Part shown: in pieces, positions 3,907 through 59,550 of the stretch | Numbering within the stretch: the stretch's first letter is position 1 | Layout of the letters: each line of letters opens with the position of its first letter | Assembly: GCA_001512835.1 (NCBI GenBank) | Contig: LFRQ01000063.1 | Location: 25,594 to 89,593, forward strand | Direction of reading: 5' to 3' | Origin: Clostridia bacterium DTU022 | GTDB lineage: Bacteria > Bacillota > Dethiobacteria > DTU022 | Length of the DNA: 64,000 nt | Translations under genes and position numbers: made by a program | The notes under the pieces: model-generated | What the model was told of the DNA's origin: nothing | Database searches by the model: none | The model's input: only the letters and a program-made list of their open reading frames with translations

Positions 3907-4592
3907 AGTTGTCTTCCGATCTGGAGAGGATACCCGGTTAAGAAACGAGGGTGTGGGCCTGGGTTAATGCGCAGCCAGTGCGGGAAAAGAACGGATTATT
4001 GAGCTGAGGTGGCGGGTAACCGCCGGAAGGAACAAAACCCGGGCTGGATAGCGGTTTTCCGAAATGTTAAAGTAGGCGATTCCGTTGAAGTCCTGGAAAG
4101 CCGGCCTTAGCTTTGGCCCGGTGGCCTGCAAGTGAGGCCGATTATTATTGTTTTAAGAAGGAATTCTGATCTGATCATCGCCAAGGGTCAGGGGAATTTC
4201 GAATCCCTGGAGCAGGAACCGGGCAATATTTTTTTCCTGCTCCGGGCCAAGTGCCCGGTGGTAGCTGGGTTTCTCGGGGTCCGGTTGGGCGATTGTGTTC
4301 TTAAAAGCCAACAGAATTGGTGATGGGTTTTACTGTATACTACTGTTCATTGCCTGAGGTTTTCGTGGGCCAAGGTTGCCTGGGGAACGGTGACTTTGGC
4401 TCATTTTGGTGAGTGACATTAATCAATGGGAGGGTGTAACTTTGGTCATTAGGAAAAATATTTTTTGCCGAAGGAATTATAAAGAATAATAAACTAAAGT
4501 TCGGATTTGCTTGTAGGATTTGCATGTATGAAGGGCGAATTACTATAACATTGGGGAAAGCTGCCATATACTGTCAGTAAGGAGGCCTCGAC

Positions 4593-9684: not shown

Positions 9685-10473
9685 TTGGATGAGATCCTCA
9701 TTAAAACGGATAAACTGACCAAGCGGTTTGGCAGGGTAACGGCGGTAGACAGCCTCGACCTGGAGGTTAAGGCCGGGGAGATTTACGGTTTCCTGGGGCC
9801 CAACGGCTCCGGTAAAACCACTACCATCAGGATGTTGACGGGATTGCTGGAACCCAGCTCCGGCCGGGCTTTTATATGCGGATATGACATTGCCCGGGAG
9901 CCCGCCAAGGCCAAGGCCCTGGCGGCCTATGTGCCGGACCAGCCCAGGCTTTACGGCAAACTGACGGCGCGGGAGTTTCTTTTTCTGATGGCGGACCTTT
10001 ACCGCATGCCTGTAGAAAGCTCCCGGGAGCGGGCCGGCGAGCTGCTGGCCATGTTCGGCCTGGAAGAGCGGGCCGACGAACTGCTGGAAGGCTTTTCCCA
10101 CGGCATGCGCCAGAAGGTAGTCCTGGCGGCGGCGCTGATTCACCGTCCGCGGGTGCTGCTTATGGACGAGCCTACCGTGGGCCTGGATCCCCGCAGCGCC
10201 CGCTTTCTGAAAGATGTCCTGCAGGAACTGGCCCGCCGGGGGGCGGCGGTATTTCTCTCCACCCACATCCTGGAGATTGCCGAGCGGATGTGCCACCGGG
10301 TGGGCATCCTCAGGGGGGGGCGCCTCATCGCCGAAGGGAGTCCTGAAGAGCTGCGGCAGCAGGTCGGCCACGGCGGAGAGAGCCTGGAGGATATCTTCCT
10401 GGAACTGACCGGAGGGCAGGAGGACGCCGAACTGATCCGCAGCCTGGAGGAGGGGAACAACGGTGAAAAATGA
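9685..10473 (+). CDS. ABC transporter ATP-binding protein
   Basis: Walker A GPNGSGKTT, the signature LSHGMRQKV and Walker B LLMDEPT are present. A TTG start follows GGAAGGAG. Confidence 0.85.
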   Translation: MDEILIKTDKLTKRFGRVTAVDSLDLEVKAGEIYGFLGPNGSGKTTTIRMLTGLLEPSSGRAFICGYDIAREPAKAKALAAYVPDQPRLYGKLTAREFLFLMADLYRMPVESSRERAGELLAMFGLEERADELLEGFSHGMRQKVVLAAALIHRPRVLLMDEPTVGLDPRSARFLKDVLQELARRGAAVFLSTHILEIAERMCHRVGILRGGRLIAEGSPEELRQQVGHGGESLEDIFLELTGGQEDAELIRSLEEGNNGEK

Positions 10474-12328
10474 CCTTCTCTCCCCGCTGGTCCAAGCCCC
10501 GCCGCCCCGCCCGGCCTGGATGGATTTTAAGCTGCTGATGGCTACCCAGCTGCGGGTGACCTGGAATAAGCTCCGCCATTGGTCGGCGGCCGTCTGGCTT
10601 GTTGTGGCCTGCATGCTCTTTGGCTTTCTTTCCCTGATGGTCTACCTGGGCGTGGAGGCTTACGGAGCCCTGGGGGCCATGGATCCCGGCATCGCCCGCG
10701 GCTTCCTCTCGCTGCTCTTCCTGGCCGGGATGGCGGCCCAAATATTTTTCGGAATCGCCACTGCTTTCTCCGTCCTCTACATGTCCGAGGATCTGGAGCT
10801 GCTGTTTGTGGCACCGGTATCCACCCGGGCCGTATTTGCCTCCAAGTCCCTGGTGGTAGCTTTCAGCAACTTCCTGCCGGTGGTCTTTTTGATCCTTTTG
10901 CCGGCCCTGTTTTACGGCCTCCTTTTCAGCGCCGGTCCTCTATACTATCTCTGGATCATACCGGTAGTGGGCGGGCTTTGGGCGGTGGGCACCGCCCTGG
11001 CGGAGCTGCTGAACCTGCTGGTGATGCGCATCGTGCCGCCCCACCGCAGCCGGGAAGCGGTGGGTGTTATCGGCGCCGTGGGCGGGATTTTTATTGCCCT
11101 GCTCTTTCAGTTGCCCAACCTGATCATCTCCCGCAGCGAAAGCTTTGATATCAGCGCCTGGATGGCCGGCCAGGGAGAACTGGTGCGGGTCATGGACTGG
11201 TTTCCCTGGGGTTGGAGTTCCCTGGTCCTGGAGGGGGCCGCCACGAGCAGCCACCTCTCCGCCCTGGGCTGGAGCCTGCTGCTGCTCCTTTTGGGTGCGC
11301 TGCTGGTCGGCATCTCTTTTCCGCTGGTGGAGCGCGGTTTTCGCCGGGGCTGGATCTCCCTGAGCGAGGGGGGAGGCGGGCCCAGAAGGAAGACCGCCCG
11401 CATCCCGAGCTCCCAGCGCCGGGGCTTGCGGCGCCGGGAAGACGCCCTTTCAGTGGTGGTTGACGGCGGGACGGCGGAGGCTAGCGGATCCTCCTGGCGG
11501 GGGATGTGGTCCGTGGCCCGCAAAGACCTGCTTTACCTGCGCCGCGATACCCGGGCGTGGTTCGGTTACCTGGTTCCCCTGGTATTTATGCTTTTCTTTA
11601 TTGGGCAGTATCTCTATCTCTCCGTGGAATCGGCGCAAAGCTCGCTATTCTCCGTGCTGCTGATCTATACCATCATGTTTAGCGGCAACATGGCCCTGCA
11701 GTCCTTCGGCCGCGAAGGGGAGGCGGACTGGATTCTGAACAGCGTGCCCCTGTCGGGGTGGCCCGTGGTCTGGGGGAAGCTGCTGGCGGTAATCCTGCCC
11801 ACCGTGCTTTTAATGGAGGCGCTGCTGGCGGGGACGGCGGCCTTGCTCCGCCTCTCATCTTCCATGATTCTGGCCATGGCGGTGGGCGCGGTGTTCCTCT
11901 CCCTGGGTGCCAGCGCCATGGGCTTGAACTTCTCCATCAGGAGCTGCCGCTTTAACCCGGGAAACCCCATGGGCAGCGTTTCAACGGGTGCGACCATGCT
12001 AATGTACCTGCTCAACTTGATTTTTATACTGCTGTTAAGCCTGGGGGTAGCCTACATCTTTCCCCCGGCGGAGCTGATGGCAGTCCTGCCGAAGATACCC
12101 GAAGTCTCCTTTGCCTGGGGCTTCCCCGAAACATTTCTTTACCTGGGCTACCTGCTGACCCGCCCCCTGCTCTGGCCGAAGGCGGCCCGAATCCTGTGGG
12201 GGGTCTTCTTCACCGGCGCCGTCTGGTCGGCGGTCTTCTTCGGCTTCATGGCCTCCACGGTATCCCGAAGCCGGAAAGGATTCCAGGTGGAGATCATCAC
12301 CCCCAAAAAACTCGGGGTCAGGTCTTGA
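10463..12328 (+). CDS. large ABC-2-type polytopic permease (621 aa)
   Basis: Its start overlaps the ATPase stop by 11 nt. It has more than 12 predicted TM helices. Its last four codons and stop (ggg gtc agg tct tga) lie inside a REP-like repeat. Confidence 0.7.
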   Translation: MKNDLLSPLVQAPPPRPAWMDFKLLMATQLRVTWNKLRHWSAAVWLVVACMLFGFLSLMVYLGVEAYGALGAMDPGIARGFLSLLFLAGMAAQIFFGIATAFSVLYMSEDLELLFVAPVSTRAVFASKSLVVAFSNFLPVVFLILLPALFYGLLFSAGPLYYLWIIPVVGGLWAVGTALAELLNLLVMRIVPPHRSREAVGVIGAVGGIFIALLFQLPNLIISRSESFDISAWMAGQGELVRVMDWFPWGWSSLVLEGAATSSHLSALGWSLLLLLLGALLVGISFPLVERGFRRGWISLSEGGGGPRRKTARIPSSQRRGLRRREDALSVVVDGGTAEASGSSWRGMWSVARKDLLYLRRDTRAWFGYLVPLVFMLFFIGQYLYLSVESAQSSLFSVLLIYTIMFSGNMALQSFGREGEADWILNSVPLSGWPVVWGKLLAVILPTVLLMEALLAGTAALLRLSSSMILAMAVGAVFLSLGASAMGLNFSIRSCRFNPGNPMGSVSTGATMLMYLLNLIFILLLSLGVAYIFPPAELMAVLPKIPEVSFAWGFPETFLYLGYLLTRPLLWPKAARILWGVFFTGAVWSAVFFGFMASTVSRSRKGFQVEIITPKKLGVRS

Positions 12329-13443
12329 ATTGTGAATTTTTAGGAAAAATATGTTATATGTTATGGAGTCAGGCCTTGAAATGTGGATTTTGGAAATTTA
12401 TAGTGCCCAATTCTTGGGCATGGGGGCCGATCTTGAAATGTGAATTTTTGCTGTGCTGGGAAAAACAGTAATTTCGATCTTGAAATATGGCTTTTTTGTA
12501 TGCTATGTTATATATGCCATGGCCAGACCGTTGCGTATCGAATACCCCGGGGCGGTCTATCACATAACAACCCGGGGAAATGCCCAGAATAACATATTCC
12601 GGGATGACCAGGATCGCGAAAACTTCCTCGATATCCTCAATGAAACTGTAAAAAGGCACAACTGGCTTTGTCATGCCTATTGCTTGATGAACAACCACTA
12701 TCATCTGCTCATTGAGACCCCCGAAGCCAACCTTTCCCTGGGCATGAGGCAAATCAACGGTGTCTATACCCAGCGTTACAATAAAAGACATAAGCAGGTA
12801 GGACATGTTTTCCAGGGCAGATACAAGGCGATTTTGGTGGATAAAGAAAACTATCTCCTTGAGTTGTGCCGATATGTAGTGCTCAACCCGGTCAGAGCGG
12901 GGCTCGTGGAATTGCCTGAGCACTGGCAATGGGGAAGCTACCTGCCAACAGCCGGATTCACCGAGGTTCCCGAGTTTCTGACGGTGGACTGGATTCTGGG
13001 CATGTTTGGAACCAACAGGCAGGATGCTCAAAGGCATTATCGAGAATTTGTCAGGGTTGGCCTAAGTAAAAAATCGCCTTGGGACAACCTTGACGGACAA
13101 GTTTTGCTAGGCAGCAAGAATTTTGTGGAACAGTTGAAGGATTTGCTTCAAGAAAAAGAGGGCATAAAAGAGATACCGCGGCATCAACGCTTCGCTAGTC
13201 GGCCCACTCTTGAAGAGATCTTTGCCGCCTGCTTAACCAAATACATTAGAAATGAAAGGATTTACGAGGCCCACGTTAAACATGGCTACTCGTTGATGGA
13301 GATTTCGGATTTTCTGGGCATTCACTACTCCACAATCAGCAAGATAGTCCGAAAAATGGTCCCCAAAAGCTAGCAATTCAAGACCTGACCCCATGCCTAA
13401 AATGACGCCCATAATAAAATTCACAATTCAAGACCTGACCCCC
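12314..13443. mobile_element. REP-RAYT unit: a Y1 (IS200-like) transposase gene flanked by inverted REP-like repeats
   Basis: Four reverse-orientation copies of GGGGTCAGGTCTTGAATTGTGAATTTTT lie upstream at 12314-12497. Two forward copies (AATTCACAATTCAAGACCTGACCCC) lie downstream at 13373-13443. Confidence 0.7.
12519..13373 (+). CDS. REP-associated tyrosine transposase (IS200/IS605 TnpA-like Y1 HUH enzyme) with a C-terminal HTH extension
   Basis: The HUH motif HYHLLIE and the catalytic Tyr region (RYVVLNPVRAGLV) are present. The C-terminal extension (EISDFLGIHYSTISKIV) is DnaA-domain-IV-like. ATG 12519 is the likely start, with an alternative GTG at 12453 inside a REP copy. Confidence 0.8.
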   Translation: MARPLRIEYPGAVYHITTRGNAQNNIFRDDQDRENFLDILNETVKRHNWLCHAYCLMNNHYHLLIETPEANLSLGMRQINGVYTQRYNKRHKQVGHVFQGRYKAILVDKENYLLELCRYVVLNPVRAGLVELPEHWQWGSYLPTAGFTEVPEFLTVDWILGMFGTNRQDAQRHYREFVRVGLSKKSPWDNLDGQVLLGSKNFVEQLKDLLQEKEGIKEIPRHQRFASRPTLEEIFAACLTKYIRNERIYEAHVKHGYSLMEISDFLGIHYSTISKIVRKMVPKS

Positions 13444-19326: not shown

Positions 19327-21114
19327 TTACACCGAACTGCTGCTGCCGGCGGAGGATTTCGCCCAGCCGGCGCGGCCGATAAAGAAGCCCACCACCAGCA
19401 GAATGGCCATGGAAACCAGCCAGATAACCAGGAGCAGCAGGCTGACCTTGTTAAAGCCTGGCTGCAGCTCATCGCTGATCCCGGTCCCGATCTGCTCCAG
19501 CCCGGGCATGATCTTATCCACAATACCGCTCTTAAGCGATTCGATGCCGTCGAGCACACCGGTGTAGATGCCGTCAATAACCAAGCCGAGGCCGTCACTG
19601 ATGCCCGGGTCGCCGCCGGGGTTGGGGCTGAACTCGGGATTGGCCAGGCCGCGGCTGACTTTGCTCAGCCCTTCGACAATCCCTGATTCGCCGGTTGCCG
19701 CTTCGGTCTTGTTAAAACCGAAAAGCATGTTGTCCAGGCCCGGAATCATCTGGGTATCGATGCCTGTCTTCATCTCCTTGAGGCCGGGAACAACCTGAGT
19801 TTTAAGCCCGGCTACGATCTTGTCAAGGCCGGGGGTCATCTCCTGGTCGATGCCGGCATCCAGTTGCTCCAGACCGGGAATTACCTGGGTATTGAGGCCG
19901 CCAAGGATGTTGTTTAGTCCGGGAACCATCTGGGTATCCACGCCCGTCTTCATCGCCTGCAAGCCGGGTATCATATCCTTGTTGATTCCATCCAGCATCT
20001 TGTTTAGTCCGGGAACCATCTGGGTGTCCACGCCCGTCTGCATTAGGTTCAAGCCTGCGGCGATTTGTTCCAGCCCGTCTCGCAGCATCTCCGTAGCCTG
20101 GAGCAAGCCGGGATCCTCGCCCTCTAGCGGGGCGGGGTTGTTTAAAGATTTGTAGACTGTATCCAAAGCTAAAGTCGCAATTAAAATCTTCACCGCATCA
20201 GGCTGATCTGGATCTTTTACTATTCCGATAGCCGTTTCTAAAGCGGTGAGGTTATCTGCCGTCTTTTGATTAATTCTATGGATTCCGTTGATAATTGTAT
20301 CCAGCTCATCGCGAGAACCCAGCCTGGCCAGGACCTGTGCCAATCCCTGGCTAATGCCCGGCTTTTGGGGGTCGGCATTGTCCAGGCCGGCCTTAATTTT
20401 ATTCAGACCTTCCACGATGCCCGACTCCTTGTGCTCGGCTTCCGTCTTATTGAAGCCGTGCAGCACCGCGGCCAGCCCCTGGCTGATACCGGGCTTTTTG
20501 GGGTCGTCATTGTCCAGACCTTGCTTAATCAGGTTCAGACCTTCTACGATGCCCGACTCGCCATCCGTTGCCGCCTTCTTCTTAAAGCCATGGAGGATAT
20601 TGCTCAGCCCGCCGCTGACCGGGCCGGCCAGACCGTTGCGAATCGTGGAAAGACCTTCGATGATTCCAGAATCTTTGTGTTCAGCCTTTGTCTTGGTAAA
20701 GCCTAAGATCATATCTTCCATGCCGGGGCTCATCTTGTCGCTTAGGCCGGAGCGGATGTCGCCCAGCCCAGGGACAACCTGGCCGGCAAGGCCGTCGATG
20801 ATCTTGTTCAATCCCGGCAGCATTTCCGTGTCAATGCCGGTTTTCATGGTCTGCAGGTTCCCGGCGATATCTTCGTCCAGTGCGCTGCCCAGGGTGTCGA
20901 GCCCGCCCACCAGCTGCTCGTTGCCTTGCAGAAGTTCGCCTACCCCGTCCCGGATCTGCTCCGTTCCATCGTAGAGCCGACCCAAGCCGAAAAGAACAAA
21001 ACCCTTTTTATTGGCATCATCCGAAGCGGCGCCGGCAGCGGCAAAAAGAACCAGGCCAATAACCAAAGCGGCGGCAGCAGCTTTGCGGATAACCGCTTTG
21101 TTTGTGATTCTCAA
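19327..21114 (-). CDS. membrane-anchored xxxLxxG heptad-repeat protein (YhgE/Pip-like ectodomain repeats)
   Basis: A TTG start follows AAAGGAGGG. The N-terminal signal-anchor is followed by about 30 degenerate repeats of G(I/V)DTQM(V/I)PGLxx(M/I)(L/I)DG…, and there is a single C-terminal TM. Confidence 0.6.
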   Translation of the reverse strand: MRITNKAVIRKAAAAALVIGLVLFAAAGAASDDANKKGFVLFGLGRLYDGTEQIRDGVGELLQGNEQLVGGLDTLGSALDEDIAGNLQTMKTGIDTEMLPGLNKIIDGLAGQVVPGLGDIRSGLSDKMSPGMEDMILGFTKTKAEHKDSGIIEGLSTIRNGLAGPVSGGLSNILHGFKKKAATDGESGIVEGLNLIKQGLDNDDPKKPGISQGLAAVLHGFNKTEAEHKESGIVEGLNKIKAGLDNADPQKPGISQGLAQVLARLGSRDELDTIINGIHRINQKTADNLTALETAIGIVKDPDQPDAVKILIATLALDTVYKSLNNPAPLEGEDPGLLQATEMLRDGLEQIAAGLNLMQTGVDTQMVPGLNKMLDGINKDMIPGLQAMKTGVDTQMVPGLNNILGGLNTQVIPGLEQLDAGIDQEMTPGLDKIVAGLKTQVVPGLKEMKTGIDTQMIPGLDNMLFGFNKTEAATGESGIVEGLSKVSRGLANPEFSPNPGGDPGISDGLGLVIDGIYTGVLDGIESLKSGIVDKIMPGLEQIGTGISDELQPGFNKVSLLLLVIWLVSMAILLVVGFFIGRAGWAKSSAGSSSSV

Positions 21115-21616: not shown

Positions 21617-21692
21617 AAAATTCAAAATTCAAGACCTGACCCTCTTGCCAGCCTAATTCAAAATTCAAGACCTGACCCCCTGCCTGACCCCC
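21617..21692. repeat. two and a half REP-like copies (AATTCAAAATTCAAGACCTGACCCCC)
   Basis: They are in forward orientation. Copy 2 and the partial copy 3 encode the last residues (QGVRQGVRS*) of the minus-strand membrane protein. Confidence 0.6.
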
Positions 21693-23140
21693 TGCCGGCG
21701 CAGCATTACTACCAGGAACCAGGCCAGGAGAAGGAGGCCTCCGTAAGCGGCGAAAAAGCCCAGGCTGGTCCACAGGTAGCGCAGGGGCTGCTGCAGCAGG
21801 TGGCCGGTGAGGGGGAAGTTGACAAATATAAATAGCGGCAGGCCGAGGAGCAGGGAAAGGGGGGCGGCAGCGGCTGCATCCACGGCGGCGGGGGTTTCCA
21901 GGCGCGGATCGACGGCGCGCACCAGGGCCAGGCTTGAGGCGATATTACCGGTTACCAGCCCGAATACGGCCGCGGTGCGCTCCGCGGCGAAGTCGCCGTG
22001 GAGGCGGGGGGAGATAAACCAGACCAGAGCCATGAGGCCTGCGCCGCAGAGCAGGGAGAGCACCAGGACCTCCACCCAGTATTCACGCACCAGAACCAGG
22101 GGAATGGAGGCCACGGCCCCGGCAACCAGGAAATCCACCATGGCCCCGGAGATGCGGGCGAACAGGCCGGTGTCAAAGAGGTGGCCGAGTTCCATCCAGT
22201 CTATTACCTTCCTGGCCAGGAAAGCAATCAGGAGAGCGACGGCAAAGCTGTAGCTCCACAGGATCCCGCTGGCCAGTTCCCCGCTCTCGCCCAAGCGGGC
22301 GAGTAGGAGCGAAAGCCGGTGAAGCAGTTCATAGGTGAGGAGGAAAACAATCCCGATCAGGGCCAGGTGAAGGGTAAAGGACTCGATTCCTTCCACGGCG
22401 GTAGTCAGGTGTCCGGCCACCGGCTTCTTCTCCTCGCGGGAAAGAAGGCCCAGCAGCACCGATCGGCTGGCCACCCTTTGGGACCCTTTTTTCCGGCGCA
22501 GCAGGAAGACCAGAACCGCTCCCCCGAGATAAGCCCAGAGAAAACCGGCAGTGCCGAAGGAAAAACCGGTCCAGCCGCCGGCTGTAAAGCCCAGCTGCTC
22601 CCACTGCAGGCCGAAATTGGCGGCGATGAGGTGATCCAGGCCGAAACCCAGCAGGGGCAGCATGGAGAAAGAAGGAAAGAAATCGGGCCGCAGTGCTGCT
22701 ATCCAGGCCAGGGTGAAGGCGATGCCGAGCAAGGCCAGCAGTGTGTAGCTTTTACAGACAGCCAGCAAGGTGGTGATGATCCCCTCGCCGTGCCGGTAGC
22801 GCGGTTTTTGCAGGCCGAAGACAATAAACACCCCCGTCAGCAAGTGGTGCACCACGGTGTTCAGATGGTCATGGGAGAGGGCGATGAGGCCGCAGACTTG
22901 CCGGTCCAGCAGAAGAAGGATTAGGCCGGCAATTAGCGCGTTGGGGAGAAACAAGCGCTGCAGAAAGGAGAGCTGCCGGCGCAGGAAGGTGGCGGCAGCC
23001 AGGCCGCAGCCGAGATAAGCAAATACCAAAACTGCATCCCAGGAGATAAAAGTGGACAGTTCCAAGGGAGCACCTCTCTTTTCCATGCCGCTCTGGTCCA
23101 AATGTTTACGGCTGTCCTTTTCCCTTGTTGTCTCCGCCAT
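21665..23140 (-). CDS. polytopic membrane protein, putative transporter; function unassigned
   Basis: About 12 hydrophobic helices. The start is uncertain: ATG 23140, or more plausibly TTG 23065 after AGAGAGGTG. The 3' end runs into the REP copies. Confidence 0.55.
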   Translation of the reverse strand: MAETTREKDSRKHLDQSGMEKRGAPLELSTFISWDAVLVFAYLGCGLAAATFLRRQLSFLQRLFLPNALIAGLILLLLDRQVCGLIALSHDHLNTVVHHLLTGVFIVFGLQKPRYRHGEGIITTLLAVCKSYTLLALLGIAFTLAWIAALRPDFFPSFSMLPLLGFGLDHLIAANFGLQWEQLGFTAGGWTGFSFGTAGFLWAYLGGAVLVFLLRRKKGSQRVASRSVLLGLLSREEKKPVAGHLTTAVEGIESFTLHLALIGIVFLLTYELLHRLSLLLARLGESGELASGILWSYSFAVALLIAFLARKVIDWMELGHLFDTGLFARISGAMVDFLVAGAVASIPLVLVREYWVEVLVLSLLCGAGLMALVWFISPRLHGDFAAERTAAVFGLVTGNIASSLALVRAVDPRLETPAAVDAAAAAPLSLLLGLPLFIFVNFPLTGHLLQQPLRYLWTSLGFFAAYGGLLLLAWFLVVMLRRQGVRQGVRS

Positions 23141-27872: not shown

Positions 27873-27878
27873 ACAGAT

Positions 27879-28078
27879 TGGTGCCTGGCACGTCAACTTT
27901 GTCAACTTGATCGAATATTCTGATAATATGTGCCTGGGCCGGCAACTTGGATAACTTTTTGTTTCCGCCACCGGGGGCCTTCTTGCGGCCCCCCTTTATT
28001 TTGGTGCCTGGCACGTCAACTTTGTCAACTTGGTAGAAAATTCTGAAAAATGGTGTCAGGACCGGCAACTTGGTCAAT
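27879..28078. repeat. two direct copies of a ~78-bp unit, each carrying three CAACTTG motifs, separated by a terminator
   Basis: The copies are at 27879-27957 and 28003-28078. Each contains GTCAACTTtGTCAACTTG…GGCAACTTGG. They lie upstream of iolB. Confidence 0.7.
27973..28002 (+). terminator. rho-independent terminator
   Basis: The hairpin GGGGGCC ttcttgc GGCCCCC is followed by CTTTATTTT. Confidence 0.6.
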
Positions 28079-28191
28079 CTTATTTTTAGGCCGGCTGCCG
28101 TTGTAGCATAGTGGAAGATATGCTAAGATTAACCTGAAATATTAAGGGATAGCGGGTCCGTTGCCGTCGTTTACCCACTGGAGGCTTCGAG

Positions 28192-31449: not shown

Positions 31450-31762
31450 TTCAATACCCCCTTGCTGTTATTATTGCGTGTTTTGTGGTGTGTTTTGCAG
31501 CGTTGCTTTGCGGCGCTTTATAGTGGAGCGGCCTTGTTACAAAATTCACAAGCTGCCCATAAAAAATACCCCTGCTCCTGCGTGCATAGCACTGAACGGG
31601 GTATTGATTCTCATCTTCTCTTACCCTATTCTTTTGGCCAAGCTTATTGTAGCATAATTATTCCATTCAGGCAAGAACACAATTCGACAAAAATTTCACT
31701 TTTCCAGACTTGACCCCTGCCATGTTTAACATTTCCAGAACTGCCCCCTAGTTGCTGCTTGC

Positions 31763-33472: not shown

Positions 33473-33886
33473 CTGGTCGGCTCCTTTCTAAAGATGAGAT
33501 CATTCCATGGTGCTGTGCCGGCTACAGATTTGCTGCCGAGTTGAATGCGGAGGTGGAGGACATCTGAGACAGCAAGTGGCCTGCAGGTATTGTTGACTTG
33601 GATTTTCTTGTAGTTCTATCTTATTATATTAAAAATTTTTAATTTTGGTAATTATATATTAAAATTGATTTAATGATATTTATGCTCCAGAATTGTGGAA
33701 GGCTGCTCCCGGAACGAAGAGATTTTCCTAGCCCTATTAAGCACTACTAGCCCAAAAATCCAAAGCCGGCCGGCATGGCGGCCGGCCTGCTGCCGCTGCT
33801 GGCAAAAGCCTTGAACTCCGGCGTCCGGAAGGCAGGTTGCCGAAAGCCGAGGGTTCCGTCTTTTGCTCTTTCCCGGATCCTACACT

Positions 33887-34124
33887 AATTCACAATTCAA
33901 GACCTGACCCCTGACATCTGTGACCCCTGCCACCTGCTTTCAAATTGCAAGACCTGACCCCTGTCACATTTCACATTTCAAGACCTGATCCGCCACTGCA
34001 TATTTACATTTCATCAAGACCTGACCCCTTCTACCTCATTTCAAGACCTGACTCCACAAAAATTCACAATTCAAGACCTGACCCCAATAAACTGCTAAAA
34101 TTCACAATTCAAGACCTGACCCCC
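33887..34124. repeat. array of seven REP-like copies (AATTCACAATTCAAGACCTGACCCC) in direct orientation
   Basis: AAGACCTGAC cores lie at 33899, 33949, 33980, 34016, 34053, 34073 and 34111. Spacing is irregular (20-50 nt) and the copies are degenerate. Confidence 0.7.
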
Positions 34125-39604: not shown

Positions 39605-40068
39605 GACGAAGGGACGGGGAGACGAGTGAGTCGGAGGACGTGAGACGGGGGGACGTGACTTTATCTCATCGTGAGACGGAGGGACGGAGGCTTTGACTCG
39701 CCGGGGACGACGACTTTTGAGACGGAGAAGCAAAGGCTTTGACTTACCGGAAATCAGGCTTTGACGGAGGGACGAGACGGAGGGACGGTAACTTTGACTC
39801 ATCGGAATTCAACTTTGAAAATTACACTTTAAACCTCTTTTTTTATTCCTATGATGTTTGAAACCGCTGTGGCAGCCGGCATCCCCGTATTTGCCGCTGA
39901 CTGATGCCTGGCATGAATTTCGTGCGAGAGCAACCTTGCAAGAGATGTCCTATCTGCCCGGACTTTCAGCGGAAGCTTATTAAATTGTGAGTCAAAGTCA
40001 CCGTCCCCTTGGCTCACCCTAAAGTAAAAAAAGTGAGCCAAGGTCACCTTCCCCTTGACTCACCGTTC
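39605..40068. repeat. cluster of the GGAGGGACGGTGACTTTG(G/A)CTCATCGG repeat family
   Basis: A degenerate direct array (about 5 units, 39605-39815) is followed by a ~170-bp spacer and then two reverse-orientation copies (39987-40008, 40033-40065). Confidence 0.55.
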
Positions 40069-57718: not shown

Positions 57719-59488
57719 TTGTATAGAAGAGGTAAAACCGGGAAAAATCCCAGGGCTTTCGGTTCCTGTGGCGGTTATAAACAGCGGTCGCTGCAAGCCG
57801 ACTCCGGCCAGTTCGCGGCCAGGGGGATCGGCCGGGTTCCCGCCAGCTGCCCGCCGGGCTTTCAAGGGCGCTACACGGTTCAGTCCGGCGATACGATGTT
57901 CTTTATTGCGCAGCGGTTCGGGGTCTCCCTGCAGGCGCTGATCAATGCCAACCCGCAGATACCCGATCCCAGCGTTCTCTTCCCGGGCGACGTGCTCTGT
58001 GTTCCCGGGGCTGGGGCTCCGCCTGGCGGCCGGGTTCCCGCCAGCTGCCCGCCTGGTTTTCAAGGGCGCTACACGGTTCAGCCCGGCGATACGATGTTCT
58101 TTATTGCGCAGCGGTTCGGAGTTTCCCTGCAGGCGCTGATCAATGCCAACCCGCAGATACCCGATCCCAACGTCCTCTTCCCTGGGGATGTCCTCTGCGT
58201 TCCCGGGGGACCGCCGGCCGGCCGGGTTCCCGCCAGCTGTCCGCCGGGCTTTGGCGGCCGTTACACGGTGCAGTCGGGCGACAGCATGTTCAGCATCGCT
58301 CAGCAGTGCGGGGTCTCTCTGCAGGCGCTGATCAACGCCAACCCGCACATTACCGACCCGAACCAGCTCTTCCCCTGCGATGTGCTCTGCGTCCCCTGCC
58401 CGCAGCCGGGCCGGGTGCCCACCAGTTGCCCGCCGGGCTTCCAGGCCCAGTATACGGTGCGTCCCGGCGACAGCATGTTCAGCATCGCCCAGCTTTTCGG
58501 GGTGAGCTTGCAGGCGCTGATCAACGCCAACCCGCACATTACGGACCCGAATCAGATCAACCCCTGCGACGTGCTCTGCGTTCCCTGCGTGCCGGTGAGG
58601 GTATCCCCCTGCTTTCCGGTGCCTGAAGAAGGCGGTCGGGTCCCTAAAGACTGCCCCAAGGGTTTCGGGGGGCGCTACACGGTGCAGGCCGGTGACAGCA
58701 TCTTCAGCATCGCCCAGCAGTGCGGGGTCTCCCCGCAGGCGCTGATTAAGGCCAACCCGCACATTCATGATCCGAAAAAGCTCCAGCCGTGCGACGTCCT
58801 TTGCGTTCCCTGCCCGCAGCGGGGCCGGGACCCCAAGGACTGCCCCAAGGGTTTTGAGGCCCAGTATACGGTGCGTCCCGGCGACAGCATTTTCAGCATT
58901 GCCCAGCTTTTCGGGGTAAGCGTGCAGGACTTGATCAAGGCCAACCCGCACATTCATGATCCGAAAAAGCTCAACCCCTGCGACGTGCTCTGCGTCCCCT
59001 GCGTACCGGTGAAGGTTTCTCCCTGCTTCCGAGAGCCGCTCCTGGAAGGCCGGGTTCCTACCAGCTGTCCCCAGGGCTTCCAGGGCCGCTATACCGTGGA
59101 GGCGGGAGATACCATGTCTGCTATAGCGCAGCGGTTTGGGGTTTCTTTGCAGGCGCTGATTAACGCCAACCCGCAGATCACCAATCCGGACGAACTTTTC
59201 CCGTGCGACGTGCTCTGCGTCCCCTGCCCGCAGCCGGGCCGGGTTCCCGCCGGCTGCCCGCCGGGCTTCCAAGGCCAGTACACCGTGGCTCCCGGCGACA
59301 GCATGTTTACCATAGCGCAGCGGTTCGGGGTTTCCCTGCAGGAGCTGATTAATGCCAACCCGCAGATTCCCGATCCCAACCAGCTCTTCCCCTGTGACGT
59401 CCTCTGCGTCCCGTGCCCCGCTTCCCTGACGGCGGTGGAAGTGGAAGAGATGGAAGAGGAGGGGGAAAAGAAGGAGATCGATCTCTAA
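57719..59488 (+). CDS. protein with eight tandem LysM domains separated by Cys/Pro-rich linkers and an acidic C-terminal tail
   Basis: The unit YTV(Q/R)(S/P)GD(T/S)MF.IAQ.FGVSLQALINANP…DVLCVPC recurs eight times at about 55 aa. The tail is EVEEMEEEGEKKEIDL. A TTG start follows GGAAAGGAG. Confidence 0.8.
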   Translation: MYRRGKTGKNPRAFGSCGGYKQRSLQADSGQFAARGIGRVPASCPPGFQGRYTVQSGDTMFFIAQRFGVSLQALINANPQIPDPSVLFPGDVLCVPGAGAPPGGRVPASCPPGFQGRYTVQPGDTMFFIAQRFGVSLQALINANPQIPDPNVLFPGDVLCVPGGPPAGRVPASCPPGFGGRYTVQSGDSMFSIAQQCGVSLQALINANPHITDPNQLFPCDVLCVPCPQPGRVPTSCPPGFQAQYTVRPGDSMFSIAQLFGVSLQALINANPHITDPNQINPCDVLCVPCVPVRVSPCFPVPEEGGRVPKDCPKGFGGRYTVQAGDSIFSIAQQCGVSPQALIKANPHIHDPKKLQPCDVLCVPCPQRGRDPKDCPKGFEAQYTVRPGDSIFSIAQLFGVSVQDLIKANPHIHDPKKLNPCDVLCVPCVPVKVSPCFREPLLEGRVPTSCPQGFQGRYTVEAGDTMSAIAQRFGVSLQALINANPQITNPDELFPCDVLCVPCPQPGRVPAGCPPGFQGQYTVAPGDSMFTIAQRFGVSLQELINANPQIPDPNQLFPCDVLCVPCPASLTAVEVEEMEEEGEKKEIDL

Positions 59489-59550
59489 ACCCCTTTTAGG
59501 GAAAACCCGCTTGCCCTGGGCTTTCCCCCAGCTTATGATGAAACTTGACA

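Follow-up and report, generated by a model that had tools for sequence, protein, structure and literature searches.

Which kind of mobile system does a Y1 transposase gene belong to when it lies between inverted copies of one short repeat that recurs in arrays nearby? We addressed this question for a 64,000-nt stretch of contig LFRQ01000063.1 (positions 25,594 to 89,593; hereafter the window) from Clostridia bacterium DTU022, in which such a gene occupies positions 12519-13373 of the + strand. A sequence-only reading had called the locus a complete module of repetitive extragenic palindromic (REP) elements and a REP-associated tyrosine transposase (RAYT). Our analysis indicates that the module of Y1 transposase plus repeat is real but was filed under the wrong sub-kind. 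With a probability of roughly 75%, we assign the locus to the TIRtrons, as a long TIRYT protein bearing a helix-turn-helix (HTH) and bounded by cognate terminal inverted repeats (TIRs) that start GGGGTCAGGTCTTGAA.

A Y1 transposase gene between inverted repeats

The mechanical open reading frame (ORF) at this locus runs from a GTG codon at 12453 to 13373 and encodes 306 amino acids. We set the start at the ATG at 12519, following the conserved N terminus MARPLRIEYPG and most gene calls in other assemblies. The resulting protein of 284 amino acids, which we characterized by family searches, alignment, and fold comparison, is found unchanged and with the same neighboring genes in six other assemblies; longer N termini (297-307 amino acids) have also been called among cluster members. 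MAGs that carry the locus include GCA_049684075.1, GCA_035409705.1, GCA_049658525.1, and GCA_049275215.1. The protein scored 55 bits against Pfam Y1_Tnp (cut-off 23) and 89.8 bits against the NCBIfam model NF047646 REP_Tyr_transpos, "REP-associated tyrosine transposase" (cut-off 80), and thus passes the RAYT model. The IS200 transposase model NF033573 gave 18.2 bits, below its cut-off of 55. The HUH motif (H60-Y61-H62; 12696-12704) and the tyrosine at the catalytic position (Y119; 12873-12875), which lies within RYVVLNPVRAG, are invariant in an alignment of 47 sequences, and the downstream W-Q-W-G-S-Y is invariant or nearly so. All residues that are invariant in this alignment are kept by the 284-residue protein.

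The Y1/HUH core covers about residues 1-145, with W-x-W-G-S-Y at residues 136-141, and is followed by a helical middle region, a low-confidence linker (residues 185-227), and a C-terminal three-helix HTH (residues 231-280; 13209-13358). In fold comparisons, the best structural match of the protein was TnpA-REP, and the best HTH match of the tail was the DNA-binding domain (DBD) of DnaA. A family profile brought the HUH, Y-x-x-x-NPV, and W-x-W-S-S motifs into register with those of E. coli TnpA-REP (4ER8), a weak match (E = 0.09), and a single-protein sequence search of the PDB returned no match; the relationship to TnpA-REP is carried mainly by the fold comparison. Likewise, Pfam HTH matches of the tail stayed below cut-off, and its relationship to DnaA is one of fold only. 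The protein thus combines the Y1 fold, with intact HUH and tyrosine motifs, and a DnaA-DBD-like HTH. The family is large: an exhaustive search at E <= 1e-30 recovered 3,418 cluster representatives (clustering at 50% identity), the best of which were mostly full-length proteins of about 280-290 amino acids, and a word-index protein search returned at least 8000 candidates.

The repeat unit is AAAATTCACAATTCAAGACCTGACCCC (27 nt). Its outer end starts GGGGTCAG, and its extended core is GGGGTCAGGTCTTGAA. Within the window, the 16-nt core TTCAAGACCTGACCCC had 16 matches at three or fewer mismatches, compared with 0.65 expected, and none of 100 shuffles reached 16. For the full 25-mer, there were seven matches at the same threshold versus 0.00 expected. 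An unbiased repeat finder recovered the same family.

Four copies in reverse orientation precede the gene. The outer left copy (12314-12340), which reads GGGGTCAGGTCTTGAATTGTGAATTTT on the + strand, is a perfect 27-nt inverted partner of the outer right copy at 13416-13442. The second (12365-12392) and third (12422-12449) upstream copies carry two and three mismatches in the 16-nt core, respectively. The fourth (about 12468-12496) occupies the canonical left position, its core ending 31 nt before the ATG, and is degenerate: the outer GGGGTCAGG half is gone and TCTTGAA is kept. Two forward copies follow the gene. The canonical right copy (13365-13392) abuts the stop codon (AAA AGC TAG CAATTCAAGACCTGACCCC), and the TAG just upstream of this repeat leaves the protein five codons shorter than homologues that end in SQFKT. 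The outer right copy is perfect over 27 nt. Thus, the gene is bracketed by long TIRs, comprising the perfect 27-nt pair and the pair at the canonical positions.

Three further clusters, all in forward orientation, make these TIRs a repeat family. The array at 21617-21692 contains two copies (21617-21643 and 21653-21679) and a reiterated terminal fragment, CTGACCCCC, at 21684-21692. Two diverged copies with two and three core mismatches lie at 31691-31748, within a 313-nt spacer between the stop of an acyl-CoA synthetase gene (31763) and the start of an alcohol dehydrogenase gene (31449). The largest array (33885-34123) holds seven copies, three perfect and four diverged, spaced 27-50 nt apart, together with a TGACCCC fragment at 33921-33927; it sits in the divergent intergenic region between an acyl-CoA synthetase gene (minus strand, start 33472) and an amidohydrolase gene (plus strand, start 34250). 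Within each array, all copies point one way. By independent gene calls, the repeat sites are intergenic apart from copies that overlap two gene ends. The outer left copy supplies the last codons and stop (GGG GTC AGG TCT TGA) of the upstream ABC_tran_2 gene (10463-12328), and the copy at 21653-21679 supplies the last codons and TGA stop of a gene for a 491-residue protein on the minus strand (21665-23140). As a side observation, both proteins end in the repeat-encoded …GVRS* (12314-12328 and 21665-21679), and a TGA occurs in two of the repeat's three frames. Within the window, four copies of 27 nt and one of 25 nt have the same sequence and unrelated flanks, indicating that the copied unit has precise ends. 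Much of the sequence-only reading is borne out by these results: the Y1 transposase gene, the four reverse upstream and two forward downstream copies (the degenerate fourth upstream copy being read from the sequence), the arrays at 21617-21692, 31691-31748, and 33.9 kb, and a total of about 17 copies. Its proposal of a tail like DnaA domain IV holds for the fold, while PF08299, the Pfam family that it named as a check, gave no match.

The label REP does not fit the repeat. Folded as single-stranded DNA, the two strands of the unit gave minimum free energies (MFEs) of 0 and -0.3 kcal/mol, and units and window arrays were no more structured than shuffled sequences (MFE 0 to -3 kcal/mol, z > 0); the imperfect hairpin anticipated for the unit was not found. 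The GTAG and CGTC tags are both absent from the unit, and Rfam, at gathering thresholds, reported no structured RNA in the window. The outer end instead fits GGGGWSAS, the main TIR type. We therefore do not retain the description of the locus as a complete REP-RAYT module, given repeat units that form no hairpin and lack both tags, arrays in a single orientation, and TIRs of the GGGGWSAS type. Two other parts of the sequence-only reading also need revision. The host is a Bacillota metagenome-assembled genome (MAG) with about 57% GC, not an actinobacterium as "high-GC Gram-positive-like" would imply, and the suggested value as a new family definition was overstated, since the family is very large and already described in many phyla.

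The names TIRtron and TIRYT were introduced for RAYT-like genes flanked by GGGGWSAS TIRs (Di Nocera, 2013, BMC Genomics 14:522; PMC3733652). As described there, the Y1 proteins are longer than RAYTs, the long TIRs are unrelated to GTAG REPs, one repeat overlaps the gene end, the repeat families are moderately abundant, and TIR copies of some TIRtrons occur as singles, dimers, or groups; the locus described here resembles TIRtrons in these respects. It differs in its host, a Dethiobacteria-like Bacillota MAG, in having extra copies outside the canonical pair, and in the decay of its canonical left end. TIRYTs correspond to TnpA-Y1 subclass 2.1 (Quentin, 2018, BMC Genomics 19:475; PMC6006769), whose long proteins have a C-terminal domain like Bac_DnaA_C, HTH_23, or HTH_28, the HTH being proposed as a short version of a DnaA-like domain. 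About 15% of strains carry the subclass; its distribution is patchy and suggestive of transfer, and REP-like sequences were not detected near its genes (PMC6006769). Our protein shares the Y1 core, the C-terminal HTH, the serine motif after the catalytic-tyrosine helix, a length among the longest members, the patchy taxonomic distribution, and the lack of nearby REPs. By length and C-terminal HTH, that is, by sequence features rather than tree position, it fits subclass 2.1.

Other Y1 systems are less similar. E. coli TnpA-REP and other RAYTs (4ER8; PMC3479197, PMC8266576, PMC2817692) have about 150-165 residues and no HTH, unlike the 284-residue TIRYT, and their REPs are imperfect palindromes of 20-40 nt with a 5' GTAG and are lineage-specific, again unlike the repeat here. 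REPs occur in hundreds of copies, compared with 16 core copies in the 83 kb of host DNA read here. Elements of the IS200/IS605 group (IS608; PDB 2VHG) have subterminal hairpins and often tnpB, none of which occurs here, and lack TIRs and an HTH tail; the window element has TIRs and no hairpins. All defining features of the TIRtron/TIRYT class that could be tested were found at this locus, and the class is its closest known kind.

The repeat and its gene across bacterial phyla

At least 120 genome stretches contain an exact copy of the 17-mer ATTCAAGACCTGACCCC; they represent many phyla, among them Acidobacteriota, Nitrospirota, Actinomycetota, Planctomycetota, lineages of the candidate phyla radiation (CPR), Desulfobacterota, several classes of Pseudomonadota, and Bacillota (taxonomic labels are those of MAG bins). 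About 70 matches would be expected by chance in the 596 Gb searched on both strands. The matched copies share about 10 further conserved nucleotides upstream (AAAA-K-T-C-A-N-A), with conservation ending exactly after CCCC, and among the matches listed, most copies are paired. This extra conservation and the pairing identify the copies as true relatives. The host-specific 25-mer, which is impossible by chance, was present in at least 116 metagenome contigs ranging from 30% to 74% GC, and 18 of those listed carry a protein homologue of 45-70% identity. Among the matches listed in the genome scan with the 17-mer and the metagenome scan with the 25-mer, no contig overlaps the window.

As an unbiased test set, we picked six homologues by protein similarity alone (61-71% identity; locus GC 36-59%) from Thermodesulfovibrionia, Nitrospirota, Syntrophales, a Firmicutes MAG, and other taxa. 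In all six, the 16-nt core is present on both sides with no more than one mismatch, and the right core lies within a few nucleotides after the stop codon. Five of the six have the end of the left core 31 nt before the ATG, a position shared by most of the distant elements. About ten more elements from other taxa have the same geometry, with a right core that begins 11 nt before the stop codon ends. In many homologues, the right repeat encodes the last residues of the protein, ...(D/N)SQFKT, and its TGA stop.

The left repeat probably also serves in expression. In the window, the predicted promoter (12480-12509, + strand) consists of a -35 box, TTGAAA, that sits inside the degenerate left repeat, an 18-nt spacer, and a TG-extended -10 box, TATGTT, followed after 9 nt by the ATG at 12519 with no Shine-Dalgarno sequence. 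Distant elements share this layout: TTGAAW in the repeat, 17-18 nt, TAnnnT, 5-10 nt, and ATG. It is therefore likely, judging from the sequence, that the left repeat carries the -35 box for a leaderless or near-leaderless transposase mRNA.

Distant homologues keep the outer end GGGGTCAG, while the remainder of the repeat diverges. On plasmids of Legionella, Sporomusa, and Rhodospirillum rubrum, proteins of 46%, 37%, and 35% identity are flanked by the inverted repeats AGGGTCAGGCCTTGCC, GGGGTCAGGCCT, and GGGGTCAGACCCC, respectively, the last of which is self-palindromic; the Legionella repeat shows, for example, the substitution of GGTCTTGAA by GGCCTTGCC.

The orientation of neighboring copies is strongly biased. 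Among the matches listed (236 loci), adjacent copies formed 109 "-+" pairs with GGGG/CCCC outward, 57 same-orientation pairs, and two "+-" pairs. The "-+" dimers fold into hairpins of 23-29 bp (-23 to -30 kcal/mol, z of -8 to -12) and look like miniature, gene-less versions of the element; natural hairpin dimers include those of L017 and L019. Many repeat matches lie at contig ends, and some contigs start and finish in the same element, as expected of multi-copy repeats, at which assemblies break. These sequence comparisons show that the gene travels with a sharply bounded inverted repeat, the two being inherited and transferred jointly across phyla.

A phage vector is unsupported, as there were 11 single viral matches, a number near the chance estimate, and about six of these came from one related phage group. 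In a group of related viral contigs from IMG/VR (L127, L128, L130, L133, L134, and L136), the repeat core is followed by the same TAGGGAACCTG. Nor do plasmids stand out: a homologue was present in 28 of 72,556 plasmids, one of them close (46% identity).

Two pairs of contigs that appeared to differ by presence or absence of the element (L043/L108 and L207/L227) were rejected as insertions and reflect deletions in the flank that end about 6 nt outside the repeat. The deletions, of about 46 nt (L043 3000-3300 versus L108 5790-6040) and about 1.5 kb (L207 2150-3740 versus L227 1950-2250), both end on the GGGG side, and one removes the natural stop so that the ORF reads into the repeat. Separately, a Nitrospirota contig (L256, 3356-3470) carries AAGACCCC about ten times just beyond the CCCC end of the repeat, where the TGACCCC fragments of the window also lie. 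Such short reiterations of the final 6-8 nt were seen in several phyla and could be a footprint of cleavage or of the target site.

A possible mechanism and competing explanations

If the enzyme works as IS608 TnpA and TnpA-REP do, it would act on single-stranded DNA. Two inverted repeats could pair on such DNA with GGGG/CCCC at the base of the stem; the conserved HTH would bind the repeat and read its conserved core, and the Y1 tyrosine would cut and rejoin at the stem base through a 5'-phosphotyrosine intermediate. Expression of the transposase from a leaderless mRNA would draw on the -35 box supplied by the left repeat. Repeat-bounded units, meaning dimers and possibly single units, might be mobilized in trans, which would leave solo, dimeric, and clustered copies. 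More speculatively, a preferred target resembling the element's own GACCCC end could give rise to head-to-tail clusters and to terminal fragments such as TGACCCC at 21684 and 33921 and AAGACCCC in L256.

We also considered the inner variable part of this host's repeat, AAATTCACA, as a DnaA box, since it resembles TTWTNCACA, yet it varies freely between genomes. As the recognition helix (H-Y-S/T-S/T-I/V-S-K) is constant while this inner segment varies, the idea has no support.

The copies in this host bear on how the element may have behaved. The host belongs to an uncultured Bacillota MAG lineage labeled Dethiobacteria, from digester-type metagenomes. GC content is 45.5% in the element and 56.9% in the window, and this low value suggests that the element was acquired horizontally. 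The host DNA covered amounts to 83 kb, made up of the window and flanking stretches of about 8.6 kb and about 10 kb. No copy in it lies outside 12.3-34.1 kb, and all are to the same side of the gene and share an orientation. The perfect, newer copies are outside the canonical pair and at three intergenic sites within these 22 kb. This pattern is consistent with local, strand-biased copying. GC skew is positive across the whole window, so the repeated strand has the sequence of the lagging-strand template, the orientation expected for Y1 transposons; at three independent sites, this is a hint and no more. No target-site duplication was evident around the window's element, and as to a conserved target, the repeat flanks show a weak A-T preference after CCCC and nothing more.

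Several observations weigh against the assignment to an active TIRtron and the scheme above. The cleavage site, the strand, and the role of the HTH are inferred by analogy. The window's extra copies all have the same orientation and so cannot form the hairpin proposed as substrate, and the recognition helix of the HTH shows no co-variation with the variable inner part of the repeat. The copies found all fall in a 22-kb part of the 83-kb host sequence, and the canonical left end has decayed except for its promoter part. Identical arrays are present in six MAG or metagenome contigs that match the window at >99.8% identity, and the lack of copy-number polymorphism among them gives no hint of recent movement. 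For the flanking acyl-CoA synthetase, the first relatives below 100% identity are at 68%, which leaves none close enough for an empty-site comparison. Finally, we found no biochemistry for any TIRYT in the literature searched, in which TIRYTs are mentioned only by Di Nocera (2013) and Quentin (2018).

Three other explanations were weighed against the TIRtron assignment. That the protein has been domesticated as a DNA binder, with the arrays as iteron-like sites for its DnaA-like HTH or as -35 boxes for neighboring genes, would account for the resemblance of the tail to the DnaA DBD, for closely spaced direct repeats like those of iterons and DnaA-box clusters, for the TTGAAT -35-like hexamer in each unit, and for the position of one array in a divergent promoter region; a left end that has lost all but its promoter part and MAG contigs that show no polymorphism would also follow. 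We nonetheless consider it improbable. The HUH motif and catalytic tyrosine are invariant and intact, which argues at the sequence level for retained catalysis, the neighboring genes have no shared function, and the same architecture and repeat recur at unrelated loci and contig ends in many phyla, as fits a multi-copy mobile element. Distinctly unlikely, too, is a classical REP-RAYT system (REPtron), in which a domesticated single-copy RAYT spreads palindromic REPs or REPINs genome-wide. The protein passes the NCBIfam REP_Tyr_transpos equivalog model and has TnpA-REP as best structural match, inverted copies surround the gene and recur in intergenic DNA, and the same repeat forms REPIN-like inverted doublets in other genomes. 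Set against this are a unit that is not palindromic and has neither tag, arrays that keep one orientation instead of alternating like those of bacterial interspersed mosaic elements (BIMEs), and a protein of about 285 residues with an HTH tail compared with roughly 150-165 for RAYTs. Moreover, the 83 kb of host DNA shows its 16 core copies within a single 22-kb stretch, and Quentin et al. found no REPs for subclass 2.1 (PMC6006769). REPs are also lineage-specific, but here gene and repeat are found together in different phyla with the repeat almost unchanged, which is what an element that moves horizontally would show.

The least probable of the three is that, once the element had been inserted horizontally a single time, repeat-containing segments were copied independently of the protein by replication slippage, tandem duplication, or gene conversion. 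Such copying could explain why all copies lie to one side of the gene within 22 kb, head to tail and with short spacers within arrays, and the terminal fragments (TGACCCC, and the ten or so units of AAGACCCC in L256) look like slippage products. Slippage does not, however, explain the precise ends of perfect 25-27-nt copies with unrelated flanks on both sides, and unrelated genes covering 8-10 kb lie between the four loci. The organization into solo copies, dimers, and clusters also recurs in unrelated genomes and is reported for other TIR families (PMC3733652).

Place among Y1 elements and other repeats in the window

The locus is a new Bacillota MAG example of the known TIRtron/TIRYT class. 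TIRYTs, or subclass 2.1, form the second largest group of Y1 transposase-like proteins, and the comparison offers a testable substrate model for them: a nearly invariant end of 16 nt with sharp bounds, perfect hairpin dimers that occur naturally, a promoter predicted within the repeat together with a leaderless start, and an HTH with the fold of the DnaA DBD. Questions of end recognition, of the mobile unit, and of the relation to REP/RAYT systems are thereby opened to in vitro work. The case also carries a warning for annotation, as a protein that passes the "REP-associated tyrosine transposase" model need not have REPs nearby.

More tentatively, repeats of the GGGGTCAGGTCTTGAA type and their TIRYTs might constitute a single, horizontally spreading, pan-bacterial lineage of single-stranded DNA transposons, with a multifunctional end of 16-27 nt that is more conserved than the transposase itself. 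Ends that are identical or differ by one base stand beside proteins of 45-70% identity on contigs of 30-74% GC. We propose that this conservation arises because the end would serve at once as binding and cleavage site, as -35 box, and as C-terminal codons plus stop. If so, the hairpin dimers and solo units would be among the most widely distributed bacterial repeat families resembling miniature inverted-repeat transposable elements (MITEs). The text of PMC3733652 contains no mention of the extended core GGGGTCAGGTCTTGAA, near-identity across phyla, an embedded promoter, or an encoded C terminus, and the repeat sequence was not found in the literature text searched. Relative to that text, the near-invariant end, the promoter embedded in the repeat, the stop inside the repeat, and the GGGG-outward dimers may be new.

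The window contains other repeats. A second short-repeat family, GTGAGTCAAAGTCACCGTCCCC, also has a CCCC/GGGG end and occurs at 4384, 38528, 39650-39805, 39985-40065, and 51749; near 39.6-40.1 kb, an array in reverse orientation and a pair in forward orientation are separated by about 150 nt. The family has no cognate Y1 gene in the window and might represent an end of another TIR-type element. Two 92-nt direct repeats (27878-27969 and 28001-28092; 80% identical) each consist of the palindrome GGTGCCTGGCACC followed by two GTCAAC motifs. At 57829-59535, eight tandem coding repeats of about 190 nt lie in the gene for a 589-residue LysM-repeat protein. A 132-nt tandem repeat (20329-20592) falls within a minus-strand ORF of 595 codons (19327-21114) that has no Pfam match, and near-identical MAG contigs differ in length at this ORF, with the alignment breaking at 19953-19994.

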